DNA of 64,000 nt from Escherichia coli (GTDB lineage Bacteria; Pseudomonadota; Gammaproteobacteria; Enterobacterales; Enterobacteriaceae): NCBI RefSeq assembly GCF_013315695.1, contig NZ_CP054353.1, one strand, 5' to 3'. The notes under the pieces were generated by a model. That model was not told where the DNA came from, did no database searches, and was given only the letters and a program-made list of their open reading frames with translations. Shown in pieces: positions 498 to 63,162 of the stretch. The translations under genes were made by a program, and so were the position numbers. How positions within the stretch are numbered: the stretch's first letter is position 1; every line of letters begins with the position of its first letter.

Positions 498-631
498 CAA
501 CCAAACGACTCGGGGTGCCCTTCTGCGTGAAGGCTGAGAAATACCCGTATCACCTGATCTGGATAATGCCAGCGTAGGGAAGTCACGGACCACCAGGTCA
601 TTGCTTCTTCACGTTATGGCAGGAGCAAACT
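498..631 (+). promoter_or_regulatory. TPP (thiamine pyrophosphate) riboswitch, thi-box leader of thiM
   Basis: Conserved thi-box core CTGAGA...ACCTGATCTGGATAATGCCAGCGTAGGGAA immediately upstream of thiM start with RBS GGAG; matches the known thiM riboswitch from memory. Confidence 0.85.
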
Positions 632-5838: not shown

Positions 5839-7112
5839 TTAACTTCCCCTTGTGTCAACGCAATATCGCGATCATCGACCTTGATAGCCGTAATTTCGTT
5901 GTCGGATTCGCGGAAAAAAATCATGAACAGCACGGCGATAATGGCAATCATCACCGCGCCGAAAGTCCACATCCCGGCCCAGTTGAAAGTCAGTCCGTTT
6001 ACCGGTTCCTGATAAGCGAACATCTTTTCCATCATCACACCGCCAAGACGATAGCCGAGCAAACTGCCGAAGCCCTGGCAGCAGAGCGTGATCAGCCCCT
6101 GCGCGGCGGTACGCATATGCACGGGAGCTTTTTTATCGACATAGATGTAAGCGGTAACGTAGTAAAAATCGTAACTTACGCCGTGCAGCAAAATACCGAG
6201 GAACAGTAACGCGTAGGTGAAATATTCATCCGCACTACCGTAAATAAAGAAGCCATAGCGGATCGCAGCGGTGACCAGACCAAGTAATAATACCTTTTTG
6301 ATACCAAAGCGTTTGGTAAAAAACGGTAATGCCAGCATAAAGAAGATTTCAGAGAACTGGCCGAGCGTCATCCAGCCAGTGGCGTTTTTCATGCCAACTT
6401 CGGTCAGATAACCGTTGGCAAAGATGTAATAGAACGCCAGTGGCATCGCAAACAGGAATGAACAGAAGAAAAAGACGAGGAAGTTCTTATCGCGCAGCAG
6501 GATCAGCGCATCCAGGCCGAGCATGACTTTAATATCCATTTTGCCGGTGCTTTTTGGTGGCGTGTCGGGCAGGAAAAACGCAAACACACCAAGCAGAGCA
6601 GAACTTCCGGCGGTAATCAGCAGCGGGATGTTCGTCGGTGAGATATCGGCATAACCCAGCATTTGCGGCAAGAATCCACATGCCAGACCAGAGGCAATCC
6701 AGCCGATAGTGCCCATCACACGAATGCGCGGGAAATCACGCTCCACATCCGGCACGTTGGCAAAAGCGATACTGTTAGTCAGCGCAATGGTCGGCATATA
6801 GGTTAGCGAGTAGGCCAGCAGTAACGGGAAGAAGCCGGCAAAAGTGGTCTGTTGCGCAGCGAAATACATCAGCACCGCACCAGCGAACATCAATACCGCC
6901 AGCACTTTCTGTGCCGAGAAAAAGCGGTCAGTGATGGAGCCAACCAGAATCGGCGACAGGATCGCCGCAATGGCGGTACAGGCATACGACCAGCCAATTT
7001 CTCCGGCACTAAAACCGCTTTTACTTAACCACAACCACAATGGCACAAACCACGCGCCCCAGATAAACCATTCAACAAACATCATGAACGACAGCTTTGC
7101 TGTTGTTTTCAT
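5835..7112 (-). CDS. yegT: MFS nucleoside transporter family protein
   Basis: 425-aa highly hydrophobic multi-TM ORF; first gene of yegTUV operon by synteny. Confidence 0.8.
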   Translation of the reverse strand: MKTTAKLSFMMFVEWFIWGAWFVPLWLWLSKSGFSAGEIGWSYACTAIAAILSPILVGSITDRFFSAQKVLAVLMFAGAVLMYFAAQQTTFAGFFPLLLAYSLTYMPTIALTNSIAFANVPDVERDFPRIRVMGTIGWIASGLACGFLPQMLGYADISPTNIPLLITAGSSALLGVFAFFLPDTPPKSTGKMDIKVMLGLDALILLRDKNFLVFFFCSFLFAMPLAFYYIFANGYLTEVGMKNATGWMTLGQFSEIFFMLALPFFTKRFGIKKVLLLGLVTAAIRYGFFIYGSADEYFTYALLFLGILLHGVSYDFYYVTAYIYVDKKAPVHMRTAAQGLITLCCQGFGSLLGYRLGGVMMEKMFAYQEPVNGLTFNWAGMWTFGAVMIAIIAVLFMIFFRESDNEITAIKVDDRDIALTQGEVK

Positions 7113-7170: not shown

Positions 7171-7674
7171 TTATTGATAGTGTTTTATGTTCAGATAATG
7201 CCCGATGACTTTGTCATGCAGCTCCACCGATTTTGAGAACGACAGCGACTTCCGTCCCAGCCGTGCCAGGTGCTGCCTCAGATTCAGGTTATGCCGCTCA
7301 ATTCGCTGCGTATATCGCTTGCTGATTACGTGCAGCTTTCCCTTCAGGCGGGATTCATACAGCGGCCAGCCATCCGTCATCCATATCACCACGTCAAAGG
7401 GTGACAGCAGGCTCATAAGACGCCCCAGCGTCGCCATAGTGCGTTCACCGAATACGTGCGCAACAACCGTCTTCCGGAGCCTGTCATACGCGTAAAACAG
7501 CCAGCGCTGGCGCGATTTAGCCCCGACATAGCCCCACTGTTCGTCCATTTCCGCGCAGACGATGACGTCACTGCCCGGCTGTATGCGCGAGGTTACCGAC
7601 TGCGGCCTGAGTTTTTTAAGTGACGTAAAATCGTGTTGAGGCCAACGCCCATAATGCGGGCTGTTGCCCGGCAT
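7171..7674 (-). CDS. insB: IS1 InsB' (transposase catalytic part; expressed as InsAB' by -1 frameshift)
   Basis: 167-aa ORF overlapping insA in the -1 frame; identical to the copy at 12049..12552. Confidence 0.9.
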
Positions 7675-7868
7675 CCAACGCCATTCATGGCCATATCAAT
7701 GATTTTCTGGTGCGTACCGGGTTGAGAAGCGGTGTAAGTGAACTGCAGTTGCCATGTTTTACGGCAGTGAGAGCAGAGATAGCGCTGATGTCCGGCGGTG
7801 CTTTTGCCGTTACGCACCACCCCGTCAGTAGCTGAACAGGAGGGACAGCTGATAGAAACAGAAGCCAC
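7593..7868 (-). CDS. insA: IS1 InsA (DNA-binding protein / transposition inhibitor)
   Basis: 91-aa ORF identical to the second copy at 11855..12130; zinc-finger [15 protein letters not shown]...CSHC. Confidence 0.95.
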
Positions 7869-8145
7869 TGGAGCACCTCAAAAACACCATCATACACTAA
7901 ATCAGTAAGTTGGCAGCATCACCCGCGATGACAATACCACTTAATAATACCTTTTAAATACCTTTGCGGTGAAAACTTGACCGCTGTAACATTTTTTCTG
8001 ATGAATCGAGCCAACAGAAAACGCTGAAAAAACATCCAAAAGATGGAAAAACTCGCCCGTAACGACCAGGATTATGATTGCCCGCAAAAGGCGGGCCAGG
8101 ACAATCCATAGCCGATATCCAATCGGAATTTACGGGAGCATAGTA

Positions 8146-11571: not shown

Positions 11572-11854
11572 GGACGGTATATGACTAACCTGTTTGTTCG
11601 TAGCGGAATTTCTTTTGTCGATCGTAGCGAAGTTTTAGCCCATATCGGTAATGAGATGCTCGCGAAAGGTGTGGTTCATGATACCTGGCCACAGGCATTA
11701 ATTGCCAGAGAAGCAGAATTCCCTACCGGGATAATGCTTGAGCAGCACGCCATTGCAATACCGCATTGTGAGGCGATTCATGCTAAGTCGTCAGCCATTG
11801 GTGATGCTGCCAACTTACTGATTTAGTGTATGATGGTGTTTTTGAGGTGCTCCA

Positions 11855-12130
11855 GTGGCTTCTGTTTCTATCAGCTGTCCCTCCTGTTCAGCTACTGACG
11901 GGGTGGTGCGTAACGGCAAAAGCACCGCCGGACATCAGCGCTATCTCTGCTCTCACTGCCGTAAAACATGGCAACTGCAGTTCACTTACACCGCTTCTCA
12001 ACCCGGTACGCACCAGAAAATCATTGATATGGCCATGAATGGCGTTGGATGCCGGGCAACAGCCCGCATTATGGGCGTTGGCCTCAACACGATTTTACGT
12101 CACTTAAAAAACTCAGGCCGCAGTCGGTAA
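11855..12130 (+). CDS. insA: IS1 InsA
   Basis: 91-aa ORF, identical to copy 1. Confidence 0.95.
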
Positions 12131-12552
12131 CCTCGCGCATACAGCCGGGCAGTGACGTCATCGTCTGCGCGGAAATGGACGAACAGTGGGGCTATGTCGG
12201 GGCTAAATCGCGCCAGCGCTGGCTGTTTTACGCGTATGACAGGCTCCGGAAGACGGTTGTTGCGCACGTATTCGGTGAACGCACTATGGCGACGCTGGGG
12301 CGTCTTATGAGCCTGCTGTCACCCTTTGACGTGGTGATATGGATGACGGATGGCTGGCCGCTGTATGAATCCCGCCTGAAGGGAAAGCTGCACGTAATCA
12401 GCAAGCGATATACGCAGCGAATTGAGCGGCATAACCTGAATCTGAGGCAGCACCTGGCACGGCTGGGACGGAAGTCGCTGTCGTTCTCAAAATCGGTGGA
12501 GCTGCATGACAAAGTCATCGGGCATTATCTGAACATAAAACACTATCAATAA
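12049..12552 (+). CDS. insB: IS1 InsB'
   Basis: 167-aa ORF in the -1 frame relative to insA, identical to copy 1. Confidence 0.9.
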
Positions 12553-12840
12553 GTTGGAGTCATTACCTCAGCCATTTATCTGTTAAGGCCAACAAATAAA
12601 GTTCATTTTCAGCAAGCGGATGATGATAACGACGTGGCGGTATCGTTGGTTATTGCGTTGATTGTGGAAAATCCGCAGCAGCAATTGAAACTTTTACGCT
12701 GTTTATTTGGCAAGTTACAACAGCCCGATATCGTCGAGACACTAATTACTCTTCCTGAAACTCAGTTAAAGGAATACTTCACAAAGTATGTTTTAGATTC
12801 AGACGAATAAATCCCTCTGTAACAATAAAAAGGACTGTTT

Positions 12841-18324: not shown

Positions 18325-18411
18325 AAAAAATAAGCCCGTGTAAGGGAGATTACACAGGCTAAGGAGGTGGTTCCTGGTACAGCTAGCATTTTATGGGTTA
18401 TGTTTTTCAGC
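18325..18411 (-). ncRNA. cyaR: CyaR (RyeE) Hfq-dependent small RNA
   Basis: Minus-strand sequence GCTGAAAAACATAACCCATAAAATGCTAGCTGTACCAGGAACCACCTCCTTAGCCTGTGTAATCTCCCTTACACGGGCTTATTTTTT matches CyaR as I recall it, including the terminal hairpin and U-run. Confidence 0.85.
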
Positions 18412-18495
18412 GAAACGGATGATAACCTTAATAAATGCAGCTGTATGTGATCGGTTTCTAAGAATTTTCCATCCGGGAAAAATAATCGAAATTAA

Positions 18496-19959: not shown

Positions 19960-20256
19960 TTAGCTCCAGTGTAAATGTCTGGAGGCGTCCTGGTTTTGGT
20001 TAAGGATACGAATGACGATAATTTCCTCTGGCGATTGCAGGAAATAAATTACGTGGCGTTCAAAAGGAAGAACAAAAATACCTTCGCCTAATTCAGGTCT
20101 GGGCGTACCTATATTATTGTTACTCAGAATCTGGAGAACGTCTGAAAGATGTTCCACATATCTGTCGGCTTGTGGTTCGCCGAAATGGTGATAGCTGTAA
20201 TACCAGATGCCTTCTAAATCCTCATTGGCTTTTGGCATGAGTTTTATAGTACGCAC
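19960..20256 (-). CDS. ParE-like type II toxin (RelE/ParE superfamily)
   Basis: 98-aa ORF directly downstream of a ParD-like ORF with a 1-nt gap; C-terminal ParE-like signature (IIVIRILNQNQD). Confidence 0.65.
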   Translation of the reverse strand: MRTIKLMPKANEDLEGIWYYSYHHFGEPQADRYVEHLSDVLQILSNNNIGTPRPELGEGIFVLPFERHVIYFLQSPEEIIVIRILNQNQDASRHLHWS

Positions 20257-20257
20257 A

Positions 20258-20509
20258 TTATTTCCTTATCCCTGCTTTCACCTTCCGTAAAAACGCGTCC
20301 TTTTCCCACGGCTGAGCTTCACCACTACTCAACCCTTCAGCGAGCATGTCACGTAACGCTTGCAGGCGAGACTCTGCTTGCTTTTCTCGAAGTAAGCGCA
20401 GCGACTCACGGATCACTTCGCTTTGGGTGCGATAGTCGCCGGATTCAATTAAGGACTCGATAAATTCACGCAACTCATCGCCGAGATCAACCGTCATCGT
20501 TCTGGCCAT
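20258..20509 (-). CDS. ParD-like antitoxin (ribbon-helix-helix)
   Basis: Start placed at MARTMTVDLGDELREFIESLIESGDYRTQSEVIRESLRLL (about 83 aa); RHH fold typical of ParD/CopG antitoxins. Confidence 0.65.
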   Translation of the reverse strand: MARTMTVDLGDELREFIESLIESGDYRTQSEVIRESLRLLREKQAESRLQALRDMLAEGLSSGEAQPWEKDAFLRKVKAGIRK

Positions 20510-20762
20510 TTTACACCCGCCTGTAAGTAAAAATCTTACATCAGTGTATTTCATAAACCGGATAGCGTCACGAAAGTATTAGAAGATATTTTGGCATATG
20601 AACATGTTCAGGAAGATAAGTATGGGATGGTAAACAAAGAAAGCACAACGAGTGCTCGTCAGTGCCCACTATTTTAATGGCGGAGGTTAATCTTAATTAT
20701 CAATAACTAAGAGTTGTTTTGATATAAAGCCGGACGCCAACAACCCACGCCCGGCATCGTAA

Positions 20763-32496: not shown

Positions 32497-32640
32497 GAAA
32501 CGGGAAAGCCCCTCCCGAGGAAGGGGCCTTAAATAAGGAAAGGGTCATGATGAAGCTACTCATCATCGTGGTGCTCTTAGTGATTAGCTACCCTGCATAC
32601 TAAGACTACCAGGGCGGGGGAAACCCCGCTCTACCCTCAC
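32497..32640 (-). ncRNA. sibB: Sib-family antisense sRNA (antitoxin) covering the ibs ORF; ends approximate
   Basis: Inferred from the known ibs/sib arrangement; minus-strand hairpin (GCCCCT...AGGGGC at 32508..32527) followed by a U-rich tract would form its terminator. Confidence 0.5.
32547..32603 (+). CDS. ibsB: Ibs-family type I toxin peptide, 18 aa (MMKLLIIVVLLVISYPAY)
   Basis: Tiny hydrophobic ORF with RBS AAGGAAAGGG, inside the first of two about 325-bp tandem repeat units; A/B naming is tentative. Confidence 0.75.
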   Translation: MMKLLIIVVLLVISYPAY

Positions 32641-32825
32641 TCCTGAAATTATGCCTTCACGATAAGATTGTCAATCCGCAGGCTTTGTAGTCTGCGATCC
32701 TGCCAGCAAATATTCTTTGCGAGTCGTTACGGAATAATCACCGAGGAAACTATTTTGTTCACGCGTTAGCGATAGACTGCATTCAGGGCGAAAGGAGGTA
32801 AGCCGACGATTTCAGCGGGACGCTG

Positions 32826-32962
32826 AAACGGGAAACCCTCTCCCGGAGAAGAGGGCTTTTAATAAGGAAAGGGTTATGATGAAGCACGTCATCATACTGG
32901 TGATACTCTTAGTGATTAGCTTCCAGGCTTACTAAGAACACCAGGGGGAGGGGGAAACCTCT
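32826..32962 (-). ncRNA. sibA: Sib-family antisense sRNA (second copy); ends approximate
   Basis: Same architecture as the first unit; hairpin CCCTCT...AGAGGG at 32835..32855. Confidence 0.5.
32876..32935 (+). CDS. ibsA: Ibs-family type I toxin peptide, 19 aa (MMKHVIILVILLVISFQAY)
   Basis: Second tiny hydrophobic ORF in the second repeat unit with the same RBS context; A/B naming tentative. Confidence 0.75.
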   Translation: MMKHVIILVILLVISFQAY

Positions 32963-33155
32963 CCCTAACCCTCACTCCTGAAATTATGTCACTCCGCCCT
33001 TAGTGTCAATCGACGGCTCTCCGTTCTTGCGAGGCGAATAGCAAAATTTTCTGCGCCGCCGGGCCTAATTCTGAAAGTTTCTTCGTTTGCTCTTATTTCA
33101 TTATTGCAATCGGTATGATACCGGACCTCAATAATTCTCTAAGAAAGGATTTCTT

Positions 33156-38967: not shown

Positions 38968-41900
38968 TCAGTTAATCGCGAAATAACTGCTATTCACCAG
39001 CAAATCCAGCGGTTGGGCATCGGCAATCACATCGCCATAAATCAGATCGACGCCGATGCCCGAAAGCGTATCCATCACTAAGGGTAAAACGACTGGCCCG
39101 GCGATGGTTTTCATCCCGAGTCGCTGAGCATGCCCCTGAATAATCGTAATCAGCATCTCATCCATCAAATTACCCTGCACGCTGGCGCATAACTCACCAT
39201 CAAGTAGCAGGTAATCTGCCATATTTGCTTTCAGCGAGTTGAAGATTTGCAGATCGCGGCCCACCTGACTGAATACGATCCGACATCCCGCCAGCCGCAG
39301 TTTTTGCACGCTTGCTGCGTGATCTAAAATCGCGTCTGCCGGAATAATCAGATGTAATAACCGTGGTGGTAGAGGGCTATTTTCCAGCTGCTCAATTAGT
39401 TCATTCACCAGCGTGGCGCTACTCAAACCGGCAACGGAAAGGGGGAGGGCGATGCTTAAGCCTTTACTGGCAATCGCTTTTGCGGCCTGCTGGAAAAAAT
39501 CGTGGAATACCCGTCGGTCAAGAGCATGGCTAAGTGCCGGATCGCTGAAGCTACGACGAAATGTTTGTTCATCAATAATCTCGCCTTCGCAACTCCAGAG
39601 CTTAAGTGAAATCAGCCACAAATTACGCGCTTGCGGGATCCGCGGCGAAGCGACACCGTGGGCGATCATCATCAACTGATTCTCTTTAATCATCCGCCTC
39701 TGTTCATCAAGCGATATCGCCGCCCGTTCGCTATGTGCGGCAGCTTGCTGCGGTTCGTAAACCGTCACCCGGCCCCGTCCACCATTTTTGGAGGCATAAC
39801 AGGCGATATCAGCCTGCGACATCACTTCAGCCGCCTGATGATTGTTGTCATCAATCAAGGTAATCCCGGCACTGGCACCTACCCGATGTACACGTCCTTC
39901 CCAGATAAAGTGATAGTCATTCACGGCGCTGATAATGCGTGTAGCGATAAAACGCGCACTTTCGACATTACAATCTGGCAGCAGCAGACCAAATTCATCG
40001 CCACCGAGTCGCGCCAGCACGTCGCTGGAGCGCAGCATACTCAGCATCAACGACGCCAGTTCGCGCAGTAAAGCGTCGCCCGCCGCATGCCCGGCGCTGT
40101 CATTCACCGCTTTAAAGCGATCAAGATCGATAAACACCAGGGCATGTCGCTGATGCGTACTGTTTACCGTTTGCAGCAGGATGCGTAGTTGCTTCTCAAA
40201 ACTGGCGCGATTGGCGAGATGCGTCAGTGCATCATGGGAGGCGCTGTAGCTCAGCTGGCGCAGCATTTTGCGTGATTCGGTGACGTCCTGAATCACCAGA
40301 ACCGAGCCTATATTGCTGCCGTCCAGAGTACTTAACGGCGTAATACTGTAATGCACGTCGTAGCTGCCGCCGCTTCGGCAGTGCAACACCACATCTTGTT
40401 CAATCGCGGAACGTGAGGTGTCGGCACTGTAAATGTTCTCCATTAATGGTCCGTTGTCGCCAAAAGTAATATGCAACACCGTCAGGAGCGGAACACCTAA
40501 CGCTTCTTCCTGCGTCCAGCCGCTCATCTTCTCCTTCTCCGCCACCGGATTCATAAAGGTAATTTTCATTGCCATATCAATACAGACCACGGCTTCGCCG
40601 ATGGAATCCAGCGTTATGTGCAGGCGCTCTTTTTCCTGAAACAATGCCTCGTTAAGCTGTTTCACTTCGGTCATATCCATATTAATGCCGAGCAGGCGTT
40701 CGACTTCGCCTTCTTTATTCAGTACCCGGTTAGCGAGGGCGCGGATATGGCGAATGCCGTCTTTCACGGTAATGCGAAATTCCAGTTTAAAGGGCGAGCG
40801 TGATTGCAACGAATCACGAATCACGAATCACTTTTTCGGCGTGTTGGCGATCTTCCGGCAGCACGCACTCGTACCACACCTGCCAGTTCGGTTTGATATG
40901 CGGAGGAATTTCATACAGCTCGAACATCCGCTTATCCCAGCTAAAAATATTCGGCTTCAGCTCCCACTCCCAGATGCCAATCCCGCCCGCTTCGTTAGCC
41001 AGCGTGATGCGCTCCATCAGTTGCTGATTCACCTGTTCGGTGCGTTTTAGCTCGTTAATGTCTTCAATCTGAGCGATAAAATAGAGCGGCGTGCCATCCG
41101 TGTGGCGCACCAGTGAGACGGCAAGCAACGCCCAGACAACATCGCCATTGCGGTTGTAGTAGCGTTTTTCCATTGAATAGGTGTTTATTTCACCGCTGAT
41201 CAGCTTTTCAACCTGTTGGAGATCTTTATTGAGATCCTCCGGCCAGGTCAGTTGCTGAAAGGTGAGTCCGCGCAGCTCTTCCTGACTGTAACCGAGAAAC
41301 TGGCAGAGTGCTTTGTTGGATTGCAGCCATTGCCCCTCGGTGCCCACTAATGCCATGCCGATGGCGGAATATTCCATGGCGTTACGAAAACGGGTTTCGC
41401 TTTCGGAAATGTGTTTGCGTTCCGCACGAAAGGCATACATCACCATGGTCATGATGTTGGCGGGCAGCAGGATCAGCAAAAACGGTAGCCACGGCATATG
41501 GCTCATCAGGTATGTACGCGGCGTAGCAAGCAGGGAGGGATCAGCGGCCATCATCAGTGACACCATCATCACCGTGGTAAGGAAGATCAAAAAGGCTTCC
41601 ATTCGTGGCAGGCGCACGGCGCTCCACATCAACAGCACAATAATGAAAGTAAAAGGCCACGGCAGATACAGCATCGAAAGCCAGCTTAACGTCAGTGTGA
41701 TGGCTAACGTGAGCAGCGACTCAAAAAGCAACCGTGGGTTGCGATGGCGCAGCAGATAGTGTGGTTTAAATAACAATCCCAGCGGCACCAGTGCCAGTGC
41801 GCCGATGGATTCTGACAGTACCCATATCAAAAATGCCCTGAGAGGATCGTCTCCGGGCGTCAGCAGGATAACCAGAACACCCCCTAACAGAGGTGGAACA

Positions 41901-42298
41901 ATGGCGCTGCCGAGTGCTAGACGCAGCCAGTCAGCCAGATTTTGCAATGGGTTATACCACGGCAGCAATTTACGCAGTAGCACTGCCCCGACCACGGCTT
42001 CAACAATATTGATGGTCGTCCAGGTCATGTTCAGCGAGCTGGTGGAAAAAAGCAGGATGGATGCGGCGATATTTCCCAGCGAGCAGCTCAGCGCAATCCC
42101 CGGCCACATGCGCCCGGCATGGCGATAAAACGCCACCATCATGATGGACGTCGGGAACCACAGTGGGGCGAGTTGGGTGCCAAACTGCGAAAGCTCAAGT
42201 GAGAAAAGGGTGAAGATAAACGAGACTAAACCTAAACTGACCAGGTGAAGCAGCGGGTGGGGCAGGGCAATTAATACATGCTGTGATTGTTTGCTCAT
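38968..42298 (-). pseudogene. dgcE: Diguanylate cyclase DgcE (MASE1-PAS-GGDEF-EAL), frameshifted by a 7-bp tandem duplication
   Basis: Two ORFs (40814..42298 membrane MASE1 plus PAS; 38968..40824 PAS-GGDEF-EAL) in different frames overlapping at three tandem copies of GAATCAC (40811..40831); deleting one copy gives a continuous ORF of about 1105 aa. Confidence 0.8.
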
Positions 42299-43951: not shown

Positions 43952-45805
43952 ATGAGACGATTTCTGACGACGCTGATGATACTCCTGGTCGTGCTGGTGG
44001 CCGGGTTATCTGCGTTAGTGTTGCTGGTGAATCCGAATGATTTCCGCGACTATATGGTCAAGCAAGTTGCTGCACGTAGCGGTTATCAATTGCAGCTCGA
44101 CGGGCCACTGCGTTGGCACGTCTGGCCGCAGCTTAGTATCCTCTCCGGGCGAATGTCTCTCACCGCCCAGGGCGCGAGCCAGCCACTGGTTCGCGCCGAC
44201 AACATGCGTCTGGACGTGGCGCTTTTACCACTACTGAGTCATCAACTGAGCGTTAAGCAGGTGATGCTAAAAGGGGCTGTGATCCAACTGACGCCGCAGA
44301 CGGAAGCGGTGCGCAGTGAAGACGCTCCGGTTGCACCGCGCGACAATACCTTGCCGGATCTGTCAGACGATCGCGGATGGTCGTTTGATATATCCAGTCT
44401 TAAGATGGCGGACAGCGTGCTGGTGTTCCAGCATGAAGATGACGAGCAGGTGACAATCCGCAATATCCGCCTGCAAATGGAACAAGATCCCCAACATCGT
44501 GGCTCATTTGAGTTCTCCGGGCGGGTTAATCGCGATCAGCGCGACCTCACGATATCCCTTAACGGTACGGTAGATGCTTCTGATTATCCGCATGATTTAA
44601 CGGCGGCTATTGAACAAATTAACTGGCAGTTGCAGGGTGCCGATTTACCAAAACAAGGTATTCAGGGGCAGGGGAGTTTCCAGGCCCAGTGGCAGGAGTC
44701 ACATAAACGCCTTTCATTTAACCAAATTAGTTTGACCGCCAATGACAGTACGCTGAGCGGGCAAGCACAGGTCACGTTGACAGAGAAACCGGAATGGCAG
44801 CTGAGACTGCAATTCCCGCAACTGAATCTTGACAACCTCATCCCGCTTAAAGAAACAGCGAACGGTGAAAACGGTGCCGCGCAGCAAGGGCAGAGCCAAT
44901 CCACGTTGCCGCGCCCGGTCATTTCTTCGCGTATTGATGAACCGGCCTATCAGGGATTGCATGGCTTTACGGCTGATATTTTGTTGCAGGCCAGTAACGT
45001 GCGCTGGCGCGGAATGAATTTTACAGACGTTGCCACGCAAATGACCAACAAGTCGGGTTTGCTGGAAATTACTCAACTGCAGGGCAAGCTTAACGGTGGA
45101 CAGGTTTCGCTGCCGGGCACGCTGGACGCGACATCAATAAATCCGCGGATAAACTTCCAGCCACGGCTGGAAAACGTTGAGATTGGTACCATTCTGAAGG
45201 CGTTTAACTATCCGATTTCGTTGACCGGAAAGATGTCACTGGCTGGTGATTTCTCCGGTGCTGACATAGATGCCGACGCATTCCGCCACAACTGGCAAGG
45301 ACAGGCACATGTCGAAATGACCGACACACGCATGGAAGGGATGAACTTCCAGCAGATGATTCAGCAAGCGGTAGAACGTAATGGTGGTGATGTGAAGGCC
45401 GCTGAAAACTTTGATAACGTGACGCGTCTTGACCGCTTTACCACCGATTTGACGTTGAAGGATGGCGTCGTGACGTTAAACGACATGCAAGGTCAATCGC
45501 CAGTGCTGGCGCTGACAGGGGAAGGCATGTTGAATCTGGCAGATCAAACCTGCGACACCCAGTTTGACATTCGTGTGATTGGTGGCTGGAACGGAGAAAG
45601 CAAACTGATTGATTTCCTCAAAGAAACGCCAGTACCGCTGCGGGTTTATGGCAACTGGCAGCAACTCAATTACAGCCTGCAAGTGGATCAGTTACTGCGC
45701 AAACATCTACAGGACGAAGCGAAACGTCGCCTGAATGACTGGGCCGAGCGGAATAAAGATTCCCGCAATGGCAAAGATGTGAAGAAGTTGCTGGAGAAGA
45801 TGTAA
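43952..45805 (+). CDS. asmA: Outer membrane assembly protein AsmA
   Basis: 617-aa ORF with N-terminal signal anchor; synteny dcd-asmA. Confidence 0.85.
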   Translation: MRRFLTTLMILLVVLVAGLSALVLLVNPNDFRDYMVKQVAARSGYQLQLDGPLRWHVWPQLSILSGRMSLTAQGASQPLVRADNMRLDVALLPLLSHQLSVKQVMLKGAVIQLTPQTEAVRSEDAPVAPRDNTLPDLSDDRGWSFDISSLKMADSVLVFQHEDDEQVTIRNIRLQMEQDPQHRGSFEFSGRVNRDQRDLTISLNGTVDASDYPHDLTAAIEQINWQLQGADLPKQGIQGQGSFQAQWQESHKRLSFNQISLTANDSTLSGQAQVTLTEKPEWQLRLQFPQLNLDNLIPLKETANGENGAAQQGQSQSTLPRPVISSRIDEPAYQGLHGFTADILLQASNVRWRGMNFTDVATQMTNKSGLLEITQLQGKLNGGQVSLPGTLDATSINPRINFQPRLENVEIGTILKAFNYPISLTGKMSLAGDFSGADIDADAFRHNWQGQAHVEMTDTRMEGMNFQQMIQQAVERNGGDVKAAENFDNVTRLDRFTTDLTLKDGVVTLNDMQGQSPVLALTGEGMLNLADQTCDTQFDIRVIGGWNGESKLIDFLKETPVPLRVYGNWQQLNYSLQVDQLLRKHLQDEAKRRLNDWAERNKDSRNGKDVKKLLEKM

Positions 45806-45815
45806 GACAAGTTAT

Positions 45816-45852
45816 GCAGATGGCGGCGTCAATTTGTCGCCATCTGTATTTA
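45816..45852. terminator. Candidate bidirectional terminator between convergent asmA and higA-like gene
   Basis: Hairpin GCAGATGGCGGCG-TCAATTT-GTCGCCATCTG followed by TATTTAT. Confidence 0.5.
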
Positions 45853-45857
45853 TAGCA

Positions 45858-46148
45858 CTAAGCAGCATGTGGATATTGAATTTCAATACGTTGAATATGC
45901 AATCCTGCATGAGCCATCATGGTGATCAATTTATCGATACTAAAGATCTGGATCTTACCTCTGGCAAGTTCAGATATGCGAGGTTGAGTGACCCCTAAAG
46001 CAGACGCTGCCTGAGCCTGGCTAAACCCTTGTTGTTCAATCCAGTTATTAATGATCGTTACAAGTTCGGCACGGATCCGCATATTTTCCGCTTGTTCAGG
46101 GGTGTCACTCACCGCATCCCACACACTATCAAAGGTTTCAATTTTCAT
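45858..46148 (-). CDS. HigA-like antitoxin (XRE-family HTH)
   Basis: HTH QAQAASALGVTQPRISELARGK; immediately downstream of and overlapping a RelE/ParE-superfamily toxin-like ORF, the HigB-HigA gene order. Start codon uncertain (46148 or 46166). Confidence 0.65.
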   Translation of the reverse strand: MKIETFDSVWDAVSDTPEQAENMRIRAELVTIINNWIEQQGFSQAQAASALGVTQPRISELARGKIQIFSIDKLITMMAHAGLHIQRIEIQYPHAA

Positions 46149-46475
46149 TTTTCCGCTCCTGAACAAGTTCTTTATAGCGTCGTTTGTCTAAATCAATATC
46201 CGATTGACTGGTAGTCTGTGTTTTCTTTTGAAAACAATGCAATACGTAAACCGCTTCTTCAAATTTTGCGATATACATGACGCGATAGATCCCATCAGCA
46301 TCGCGAGTACGAATCTCTCGCACACCAGGGCCGATAGTTGAAAAGGTTTCCAGTCGTATGGGTTTAACCCTTGTTGGATCCTGTCGAGTTGATAGCCAAT
46401 TTCCTGTCGAGACGATTCTGGAAATGCGCGTAAATCGTCAAGACTGGTATCAAGAAAAGCCAGCTTTTTTCTCAT
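46138..46475 (-). pseudogene. HigB-like toxin (RelE/ParE superfamily), split by a frameshift
   Basis: N-terminal part (46188..46475) and C-terminal part (46138..46323) are in different frames; adding one T/A in the A4 run at 46341..46344 gives a continuous toxin of about 112 aa. Confidence 0.6.
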
Positions 46476-46549
46476 TACTCCATCCTTAGATTATACTAAA
46501 TTTTGTATAAATCAAATGCGCAGTTTGAACCTGCGCATTTGATGTTTTA

Positions 46550-48133
46550 TCACACTTCGTACTCCATCTCGCCATCCTTACGTAGCGGAATAATTTGCAC
46601 CTTCTGCACGCGATGGCTTTCCACCTGCAACGTTTTAAGCAAATAATCCCCCACCTGAACTTCTTCGCCAGGTTTTGGAATACGCTGCAAATATTCCATC
46701 AATAGCCCGGCAATGGTGTGATATTCACGTTTTTCATCCAGCGGCAGCGGCACATATTGCACCAGATCCTCCAGCGGCATATGACCATTCGCCGTCCAGG
46801 AACCGTCCGCATTTTTCTGAATATCATGGCGGGCGTCGATCTCTTCCACTTCGTTCGGTAAGTTACCGGCAATGGTTTCAGTGACGTCACTTAATGTCAC
46901 AATTCCTTCCACCGAGCCAAACTCATCCACTACAAAAGCAAAGTGCGTGCGGGCATTACGGAACTGCTCCAGGGCAGGTAACAACGGCAAGGTTTCCGGG
47001 AACACCAGCGGCTGGCGAATCAACACCCGCAGGTTGAGCGGTTCGCCGCGCAGAGACTGTTGTAGCAGGTCGATAACGTGAACAACACCGAGCAAATCTT
47101 CTGCGTCATCACCGTCGGTAACCACCAGCCGCGTATGCTGATTTCGCTCCAGCAACTGGCGGATTTCTTCTTCCGGTGCGTTGAGATCGATATGCTCAAT
47201 ATCGTGGCGCGACGTCATAATGCTGCTGACGGTGCGCTGGTTAAGATTAAGTACCCGCTCAATCATCCGCCGTTCCTGCGGATTAAAGATTTGCTGGTTA
47301 CCATGATCCACCAGCATAGACGCGGTTTCGGCGTCCAGTTCCGCATCTTCTTTTTGCCCGCTAAGCAGGCGCATTACCGCTTCGGTAGTCCGCTGGCGCA
47401 GCGTCTGGTTAGCGGAAAGAAAACGTCGCCGGTTAAAGATAGCCAACTGATTGAGCGCCTCGATCATCACCGAGAAACCAATAGCAGCGTACAGGTAGCC
47501 TTTCGGAATGACGAAGCCGAAACCTTCTGCCACCAGGCTAAAGCCAATCATCAACAGGAAGCTTAAGCAGAGAATAACGATCGTCGGGTGACTGTTAACA
47601 AATTGCGTTAATGGCTTGCTGGCCATCAACATCAGGCTGATAGCGATAACGACGGCGGCCATCATGACCAGTAAATGGTCGACCATCCCGACGGCGGTAA
47701 TCACCGAGTCGAGTGAGAAGATGGCGTCCAGTACCACAATTTGTGTCACCACCCCCCAGAACTTCGCACCTTTGCGTTGTGTGGGGTTATTGCTGTCTTT
47801 CCCCTCCAGCCGTTCGTTCAGCTCCATCGTGGCTTTGAACAGCAGGAAGAAACCACCAAACAGCATGATTAAATCGCGGGCGCTAAAGGTAAACGAGCGG
47901 AAGCTGAACAGCGGTTGAGTCAGGGTGACCAGCCAGGAGATTGACGCCAGCAGTAACAGGCGCATTAACATCGCCAGCAGCAGCCCGGTAACCCGTGCGC
48001 GGTCGCGCTGCTTCGGCGGTAGTTTTTCGGCGAGGATGGCAATAAAGACCAGGTTATCAATGCCGAGGACCAGTTCGATTACAATCAGCGTGATTAACCC
48101 GGCCCAGATAGACGGATCGGCAATCCATTCCAT
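46550..48133 (-). CDS. yegH: TerC/CBS/CorC-domain membrane protein
   Basis: Start placed at [13 protein letters not shown] (527 aa); TerC-like membrane domain plus CBS pair and CorC C-terminal domain. Confidence 0.8.
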
Positions 48134-48601
48134 AGTAAGTACAAAACCTATTCGTTGTATGACAAATGTCACAATTCGATCATGGATAAATCGGGGCAAA
48201 AATGCAATGTTGCAGCACTATTTATCTCATATTATTTGAGGGTAATAACCTCACATTATCCCTGAATTAAAAGTGGTAATAATAAAACATTATTTAAGAA
48301 ATATCGCATGTGGAGACACTATATTAAATATTGTCAACCTAAAGAAACTCCTAAAAACCATATTGAATGACACTTAATATAATTCTTAAAAATAGCCAAT
48401 TGCCGAATTGTTACCTTGCCTGCTATTCCGTTAGCTGTAACACTTCCTCCTGCATTATTGGAGAGCCAATATTCAATTACCATAATGTCACCTTATATTC
48501 GGAAGTTAATTTCCGCAATAACCCTTTCTCATCAACGACTGTATGTTGAGAGAGTTTTAAAAATTAAGCTAAATCAGTGTATTGGTAGCTAAAAAGCCAG
48601 G

Positions 48602-48613
48602 GGCGGTAGCGTG
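48602..48613 (+). promoter_or_regulatory. ops element (GGCGGTAGCGTG) within JUMPstart, RfaH-dependent antitermination site in the wza leader
   Basis: Exact ops core GGCGGTAGCGT about 180 bp upstream of wza start. Confidence 0.8.
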
Positions 48614-63061: not shown

Positions 63062-63162
63062 CAGTTGCATAATCAACCGGATTAATTCTTCGGTAAATAA
63101 CGACAAAAACAAAATTGGCCGTTTCGGTCAGGGCCAACTATTGCCTGAAAAAGGGTAAAGAC

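Follow-up and report, generated by a model that had tools for sequence, protein, structure and literature searches.

A two-gene module (45858..46475) sits between the convergent genes asmA (43952..45805, plus strand) and yegH (46550..48133, minus strand) in the window, the stretch of 64,000 nucleotides of Escherichia coli DNA analysed here. In the list of open reading frames (ORFs), both reading frames of the module are on the minus strand. The first gene is a toxin pseudogene and the second is an intact gene for a predicted antitoxin (Table 1). An earlier note on this DNA described a toxin-like ORF upstream of and overlapping an antitoxin-like ORF; its coordinates are exact, and the overlap is 11 nt (ATGAAAATTGA). 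The module here lies outside any prophage.

The spacer between asmA and yegH departs from that of K-12 at the asmA stop codon, which is TAA here and TAG in the K-12 sequence, and continues to differ up to the first bases past the yegH stop codon. K-12 MG1655 is without the module, in line with the earlier note. Two hairpins form the edges of the module: the terminator-like one on the yegH side, and on the asmA side one that is likely a bidirectional terminator. In an Rfam scan of the whole window, the interval 45800..46560 gave no match, so neither an RNA element nor a type I or type III antitoxin RNA was found there.

Table 1. Features of the asmA-yegH spacer and their positions in the window
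Feature	Position	Strand	Description
Strain-variable spacer, entire	45806..46549		744 nt, asmA to yegH; compared with K-12
Hairpin, asmA side	45814..45849		between the convergent stop codons of asmA and the antitoxin gene; 12-nt arms
Predicted antitoxin/autorepressor gene, intact	45858..46148	-	96 aa, identical to WP_000687871.1; XRE-type HTH, Pfam HTH_37
Toxin pseudogene, gp49/Tad family of the RelE/ParE superfamily	46138..46475	-	start ATG at 46475; repaired product 112 aa, identical to WP_001227699.1
Residual 95-aa ORF	46188..46475	-	45 native N-terminal residues and 50 out-of-frame residues; stop at 46188
Frameshift site	46341..46344		A4 on the plus strand (T4 in the coding strand); A5 in 790 other E. 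coli records
-10 hexamer TATAAT, perfect	46490..46495	-	14 nt upstream of the toxin ATG; the minus-strand 3' half of the palindrome runs into it
Palindrome, 20 nt	46491..46510		TTATACTAAATTTTGTATAA; core ATAC-N8-GTAT at 46493..46508
Hairpin, yegH side	46511..46543		from the yegH stop codon to the module promoter region; terminator-like, 16-nt arms

The toxin reading frame is not intact in the window because of a one-base deletion. When the 744-nt spacer was aligned with that of E. coli UTI89, the sole difference was one T missing from the coding-strand T5 run. This is, to the base, the lesion that the earlier note had located in the A run, and the length of about 112 aa predicted there for the repaired product is that of the uninterrupted UTI89 protein. 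The frame is lost after residue F45, that is, after 45 sense codons, and the remainder of the toxin is read in a second frame that ends at 46138. The stop of the residual ORF is 39 nt upstream of the ATG of the antitoxin gene. The native overlap of stop and start codons no longer exists, and translational coupling is lost with it. With everything from G49 on deleted by the shift, neither the C-terminal helix nor any main strand of the sheet is left, and the candidate catalytic residues E54, R56, R65, F82, K84 and Q87 are all downstream of it. Deprived of its sheet, its C-terminal helix and all conserved candidates for catalytic residues, the toxin is dead in the window strain. The module in the window is a remnant, a family member by descent and no working system. 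RefSeq labels the same gene in two other E. coli genomes, AF3 and MSB1_4I, as 'type II toxin-antitoxin system RelE/ParE family toxin, frameshifted'.

The antitoxin gene has its own Shine-Dalgarno sequence, AGGAG, 7 nt before the ATG. The gene is annotated as intact, under the accession WP_000687871.1, in AF3, UTI89, MSB1_4I and O157:H16.

Family and fold of the module proteins

The earlier note had assigned the pair to a RelE/ParE-superfamily toxin and an XRE-HTH antitoxin, and the profile searches bear this out. The repaired toxin matched Pfam Gp49 (PF05973) with E=3.3e-28 over model positions 1-90 of 90. The antitoxin matched Pfam HTH_37 (PF13744) with E=4.9e-22 and HTH_3 with E=5.4e-07. The Gp49 and HTH_37 matches lie well outside what chance would give. 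For the toxin, 6707 homologues were found, and PF05973 was carried by 120 of 120 among the matches listed. Identity to gp49 of phage N15, the namesake of the family, is 32%. The toxin homologues are named 'phage-related protein' and those of the antitoxin 'predicted XRE-type DNA-binding protein' in the JGI data. The nearest solved relative of the antitoxin is a structural-genomics HTH protein (2a6c, E=3e-14), and the antitoxin of Streptococcus pneumoniae HigBA is a weak match.

The predicted fold of the toxin agrees with this assignment. The AlphaFold (AF2) model, built on 53 homologues, has a pLDDT of 90.1 and a beta-alpha-alpha-beta4-long alpha topology, with a four-stranded sheet, a short extra strand at 42-44 and a C-terminal helix at 91-111. 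When it was compared with the PDB by Foldseek, the top 24 matches were all toxins of the RelE/ParE superfamily. The first was Mycobacterium tuberculosis HigB1, free (7awk) or ribosome-bound (7nbu), with TMq 0.67, E=4e-4 and an identity of 18-20% in the structural alignment. It was followed by S. pneumoniae HigB, ParE2, RelE, Vibrio cholerae HigB2 and YafQ. HigB1 was missed by the sequence and profile searches of the PDB and was found by fold comparison only. The sequence search with the single toxin gave just a marginal match to S. pneumoniae HigB, and with the profile search the match to that toxin strengthened to E=0.0012. The motif R..Y...LHxFxKKTQKT is common to the toxin and S. pneumoniae HigB (6af3).

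Twenty positions are invariant in the alignment of 53 sequences: L15, F18, P19, G27, Q29, P39, W42, G49, G51, E54, R56, R65, Y68, H80, C81, F82, K84, T89, D93 and R100. The catalytic pocket proposed for HigB1 consists of E66, R68, N73, R77, F93, K95, Q98 and K99, and the K95A variant is inactive (PMC9098466). Judged from spacing, not from a residue-level superposition, E54-x-R56, R65, F82-x-K84 and Q87 of the E. coli toxin appear to match this pocket at nearly equal intervals.

The description of the module as HigBA-like in the earlier note stands for the gene order and the superfamily and falls for the family. The toxin had no match to the HigB Pfam families even at E<=10. The antitoxin scored 16.3 bits against the HigA equivalog TIGR02607, whose cut-off of 47.7 was not reached. 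Against NCBIfam TIGR02683 (upstrm_HI1419 RelE/ParE toxin), the toxin scored 23.3 bits with a cut-off of 62.85, and no NCBIfam match was above the curated cut-off. PADLOC-DB v2 gave no credible defence-system match: the best was to PDC-M64C, a candidate family, for the HTH protein (6.9e-05), and the toxin reached 0.0031. By these sequence and profile comparisons, the module belongs to the Tad-Ata/gp49 branch (COG4679-COG5606) of the type II RelE/ParE toxin-antitoxin (TA) systems and not to canonical HigB/HigA.

A palindrome fused to the -10 box of the module

Upstream of the toxin gene, the palindrome lies directly before the ribosome-binding site and overlaps the -10 hexamer. The same arrangement, ATAC-N8-GTAT fused to TATAAT or TATAAA, was also found in Salmonella, Alcaligenes, Methylohalobius, Yersinia and Tepidiphilus, that is, in six genera with E. 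coli, and the flanks are unrelated. In the five other genera the core is 10-20 nt upstream of the toxin ATG; the Tepidiphilus core is the variant ATAT-N8-GTAT. Conserved in this way, the palindrome at 46491..46510 is the likely operator for the HTH antitoxin and overlaps the -10 of the promoter.

The gene pair itself recurs in the same way. A Gp49 gene followed by an overlapping HTH_37 gene was also found in Alcaligenes, Salmonella diarizonae, Methylohalobius, Yersinia and Tepidiphilus with unrelated neighbours. Recurrence of the gene pair in unrelated contexts of five other genera is the hallmark of a two-gene module that is mobile.

The strength of the promoter is uncertain, because E. coli has no acceptable -35. 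A scan of the minus strand for the sigma-70 consensus gave no promoter, with no acceptable -35 at 16-18 nt from the -10; the claim made here is limited to the perfect -10 within the palindrome and does not extend to a mapped promoter. By our own reading, the Alcaligenes module has a good -35 (TTGCCA) 17 nt upstream; the corresponding position in E. coli is taken by the yegH-side hairpin. Transcription of the module may be weak or may rely on read-through from yegH.

Loss of the toxin at the asmA-yegH locus in E. coli

The earlier note supposed that the module is strain-variable and proposed comparing the asmA-yegH interval across E. coli genomes. This comparison gave the module in 910 of 5426 complete genomes, with a near-full-length spacer in 792 of these. 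About 118 records cover the query in part, mostly its first 67%. Carriers include the UTI89/APEC O1 group as well as O157:H7, in which both genes are intact and the toxin is WP_001227701.1. Spacers of the K-12 type are present in 4169 genomes, and A0 34/86 has a minimal spacer of 67 nt that is largely a REP-like palindrome.

Five toxin-destroying events were examined at the locus. One is the A4 frameshift carried by the window. AR202.2 and MSB1_8G have lost 23 nt between CTCGACAGGA direct repeats, and ECONIH4 has an IS1 insertion. In other genomes, such as O157:H16, a sequence that bears an IS110-family element stands in place of the promoter and of the toxin's N-terminal half. WB61 has a larger deletion reaching into yegH. 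These five disruptions are independent events. Four of the five loci retain an intact antitoxin ORF, the exception being WB61, in which nearly all of the antitoxin is lost. Further broken alleles were found in the protein collection, namely an 82-aa truncated toxin (326 contigs), a second frameshift and a toxin-antitoxin fusion. In the hybrid genomes an IS110-family repeat lies next to the truncated toxin, and the K-12-type spacer contains a fragment of this repeat. The 'empty' site of K-12 is not actually empty.

Why the antitoxin is retained can be read in more than one way. It is possible, though we consider it unlikely, that the toxin is dead and the antitoxin is kept by selection, either as an anti-addiction factor against related gp49 toxins of plasmids or phages or because it acts on other targets as a transcription factor. 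The four disruptions that spare the antitoxin and the additional broken alleles in public data speak for such selection. The toxin family is also present on 575 plasmid records, 275 of them conjugative, with three E. coli records at 97-98% identity and a near-identical module on, for example, NZ_CP083887.1, and orphan antitoxins are abundant in phylogroup B2 E. coli (PMC10790755). However, the asymmetry is expected without selection, because an active toxin cannot survive loss of the antitoxin: antitoxin-first loss would be lethal and toxin-first loss is the route that remains. Moreover, the events are recent, which leaves little time for decay of the antitoxin, and one genome, WB61, has lost nearly all of it. 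The asymmetry is therefore compatible with selection for an orphan antitoxin and does not prove it. Taken one step further, the antitoxin, kept together with its putative operator although the toxin is destroyed in at least five independent ways, might be selected as an anti-addiction factor against closely related toxins of E. coli plasmids or as a regulator of other genes, and decay of this kind might have ended in the K-12-type spacer; this extended proposal seems to us doubtful.

It is also conceivable that the intact E. coli toxin is weak and that its loss is neutral. Such weakness might be expected since some gp49-family toxins, namely HigB2 and HigB3 of M. tuberculosis, are not toxic (PMC9098466).

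Relation to known toxin-antitoxin systems

The Tad-Ata system corresponds to COG4679-COG5606 of Makarova et al. 2009 (PMC2701414). The gp49 family is one of 13 RelE/ParE families; it is toxin-first, acts by ribosome-dependent mRNA degradation and has gp49, tad, HigB1 and HigB3 as members (PMC11980606). The Gp49 branch also holds HigB1-3 of M. tuberculosis.

The E. coli module resembles tad-ata on plasmid pAMI2 from Paracoccus aminophilus and gp49/gp48 of N15 in its Gp49/DUF891 toxin, its XRE-type HTH antitoxin, the toxin-first order and the gene overlap. However, those systems are on a plasmid and a prophage, whereas the E. coli module is in a chromosomal spacer between housekeeping genes and its toxin is a pseudogene. 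The best structural match, HigB1 of M. tuberculosis (HigB-TAC, Rv1955), has a similar spacing of the candidate catalytic residues, E-x-R...R...F-x-K-x-x-Q, and also the long C-terminal helix that is said to typify Gp49-like toxins (PMC9098466). Its own system, of the toxin-antitoxin-chaperone kind, comprises three genes and includes a SecB-like chaperone, whereas the E. coli module has two genes only.

S. pneumoniae HigBA (6af3/6af4) contains the only solved toxin that is detectable by sequence, with the motif R..(Y/F)...LHxFxKxTQKT, but the similarity is confined to the C-terminal 40 residues and the TM-score is lower (0.49-0.55). Canonical HigBA systems, such as those of Proteus Rts1 and V. 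cholerae and ygjN-ygjM of E. coli K-12, are likewise toxin-first and combine a RelE/ParE-superfamily toxin with an HTH antitoxin. Their families (PF05015/PF09907, and TIGR02607 for HigA) are not matched by the E. coli module. V. cholerae HigB2 belongs to PF06296 and not to PF05973 (PMC11980606). HigBA of Acinetobacter baumannii, whose regulation and activity have been studied, is alike by description, with a GP49-domain toxin, a reverse (toxin-first) operon and an HTH antitoxin (PMC5906591), but it is plasmid-borne. Our literature search for the E. coli asmA-yegH module, WP_001227699 and WP_000687871 returned nothing, and no experimental study was found.

These comparisons bear on whether the pair is a TA system at all. 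It could instead be a phage-derived pair of regulators whose likeness to toxins is a matter of shared fold only. The Pfam family takes its name from a phage protein, the best PHROG match is phrog_2523, whose function is not known in PHROG, and the curated NCBIfam cut-offs were not passed. However, Dziewit et al. 2007 validated members of the family, pAMI2 tad-ata among them, as TA systems, according to the accounts in PMC2701414 and PMC5906591, where the title listed for that work names N15 and SXT as having homologous systems. HigB1 has been proven to be an RNase that depends on the ribosome (PMC9098466), the candidate catalytic residues are invariant in the 53 homologues, and the module here is not within a prophage. 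We therefore consider a mere regulator pair very improbable and retain the assignment to the gp49/Tad-Ata TA systems.

Origin of the one-base deletion

The earlier note had left two explanations for the short A run, inactivation of the toxin or a homopolymer sequencing error. With a 70-nt probe across the run, 791 of the 5426 complete E. coli genomes proved to carry the segment, in 792 records altogether. The run is A5 in 790 of the 792 records and A4 in two, from two of the 791 genomes, and the lengths show no scatter. The two A4 records are AF3 (NZ_OZ547117.1), from a blood culture in the UK, and MSB1_4I (NZ_LR898874.1), from a rectal swab in Australia. The window is the third A4 genome, and the three form a single tight lineage. 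It differs from MSB1_4I by 1 SNP in 24 kb; over 50 kb, 3 SNPs and two indels, of 27 nt and 1 nt, separate it from AF3. Two private defects of AF3, a stop codon in yegT and a 1-nt deletion that shifts the frame of gatY, are absent from the window. The nearest outgroups, MS 21-1 and AF14, have A5 and are 10-13 SNPs per 24 kb from the window; the other indels relative to them are only 6-7-nt tandem duplications in dgcE.

If the missing base were an error of sequencing or assembly, the toxin would truly be intact. A single base in a homopolymer is the classic type of error, and the gatY deletion and the nearby yegT stop codon of AF3 could themselves be errors. Against this, the same A4 is present in three assemblies of different source, and the A5 in 790 other records, obtained with all technologies, indicates that the site is not error-prone. 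A run of five is also short for systematic errors, and 24 kb of the window has no further homopolymer-length difference from the nearest outgroups. We thus hold an error to be highly improbable. Real inactivation is strongly favoured, because A4 is common to the window and two independently sequenced, near-identical isolates and is absent from the 790 other records. Resting on the agreement of the three assemblies, A4 is very probably a genuine, inherited and lineage-specific deletion.

The frameshifted gene might still function through slippage of the ribosome or of transcription on the T run, through a reversible phase-variable switch, or through a C-terminal half started at an internal GTG (V52, 46323), which opens a 61-aa ORF holding the conserved C-terminal residues. 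Although the shift is in a homopolymer, we regard this as extremely improbable: programmed frameshifting and phase variation were rejected since T4/T5 is far below the tract lengths known for such processes and the frame-preserving length is found in 790 of 792 records, and restart at the GTG was rejected since no Shine-Dalgarno sequence precedes it and the fragment would lack beta1 and both N-terminal helices, a third of the modelled fold.

Discussion

We consider it highly probable that the asmA-yegH spacer of the window holds a chromosomal gp49/Tad-Ata type II TA module in decay, in which the toxin was killed by a real one-base deletion and the antitoxin was kept. In the intact form, as in UTI89 and O157:H7, one promoter with its -10 inside the conserved palindrome would transcribe both genes. 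By analogy with HigB1, the 112-aa toxin may be an mRNA endonuclease that depends on the ribosome. It would be neutralised by the antitoxin, which would also repress the operon by binding the palindrome with its HTH. In the window lineage, the deletion in the T5 run shifted the frame after residue 45 and left a dead toxin. What persists is the antitoxin gene with its ribosome-binding site and the putative operator, and the product is presumably still expressed as an orphan antitoxin and autorepressor.

The finding is ordinary in that the TA family has been described and RefSeq already labels the gene as a frameshifted RelE/ParE toxin. The present analysis adds the precise family, evidence for a real and clonal frameshift, a catalogue of independent knock-outs of the toxin, a conserved operator candidate and the observation that the K-12 site is not empty. 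It has little import beyond annotation. Nevertheless, the locus is a clean natural case of a chromosomal TA module that loses its toxin first, having been knocked out several times independently. The A4 allele marks a small clinical or commensal lineage, and the palindrome of ATAC-N8-GTAT with the -10 provides a testable putative operator for an uncharacterised E. coli member of the gp49/Tad-Ata family.

Discussion

Judging by its sequence, the K-12-type spacer between asmA and yegH, which lacks the toxin-antitoxin (TA) module, is not an empty site. Of its 273 nt, 195 show 97% identity to the end that lies outside the coding region in an IS110-family element whose protein is annotated as 'RNA-guided transposase' (WP_000868863.1), and the same element adjoins the truncated toxin gene of hybrid genomes such as O157:H16. 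In strain A21 both ends of the element are kept without the transposase. In K-12 and in WB61, a genome with a larger deletion that extends into yegH, a sequence containing TGAATATGYAA directly borders the element end. Full copies of the element were found in 173 genomes, and fragments of it occur at a median of three places per genome.

The RefSeq genome NZ_CP026085.1 (4.83 Mb), labelled DH5alpha, carries the TA module with the A5 allele, while its counterpart in K-12 MG1655 is the IS-remnant spacer; the label may be wrong, or the strain may not descend from K-12. In the plasmid collection, three E. coli records, NZ_CP114132.1 (438 kb), CP137936.1 (365 kb) and NZ_CP083887.1 (43 kb), encode a toxin that shares 97-98% identity with its chromosomal counterpart, and homologues of about 70% identity are present on large plasmids of Pantoea and Erwinia. 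Those 'plasmids' that are very large may be chromosomal fragments.

Other TA loci and RNA elements were located in the window (see table). In the second accessory type II pair the antitoxin gene comes first; the pair encodes a ParD-family antitoxin followed by a RelE/ParE-family toxin, and both genes are annotated as intact. The two Ibs/Sib loci gave SIB_RNA scores of 141.7 and 149.5 bits.

Features in the window and in the extracted asmA-yegH loci (L007 and L005, own numbering)
Feature	Coordinates	Strand	Basis or remark
TPP riboswitch	window 501..597		Rfam match
IS1A, two copies	window 7172..7869 and 11581..12810		
CyaR	window 18328..18413		Rfam match
Second accessory type II TA pair, between trhP and yegP	window 19960..20554	-	annotation of near-identical AF3 record
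Ibs/Sib type I TA loci, two	window 32532..33009		Rfam SIB_RNA matches opposite ibs ORFs
dgcE (diguanylate cyclase)	window 38968..42298	-	indels at about 40528 and 40809
JUMPstart element, upstream of wza	window 48575..48613		Rfam match
algC RNA motif	window 63109..63158		Rfam match
asmA-yegH spacer, K-12 MG1655	L007 4487-4759		
IS110-family element, O157:H16	L005 3004-3198 and 3489-4514		

The dgcE gene, 4 kb from the toxin gene, has its reading frame shifted by a tandem duplication of 7 nt (ACGAATC) and, compared with the nearest outgroups, contains an additional in-frame 6-nt duplication. Because both duplications are common to the window and the near-identical genomes AF3 and MSB1_4I, dgcE is a second lineage-specific pseudogene.

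Unlike the window, the AF3 record has an internal stop in yegT and a 1-nt deletion in gatY (window positions 5968 and 9465), and it differs from the window by a 27-nt indel near position 133, within an HTH-like pseudogene. These three differences are either private mutations of AF3 or errors in its assembly. Over the IS1A copies the two sequences align without gaps. One copy adjoins yegT and the other interrupts gatA, the gene for the PTS galactitol IIA component, so galactitol utilisation has probably been lost in the lineage of the window.
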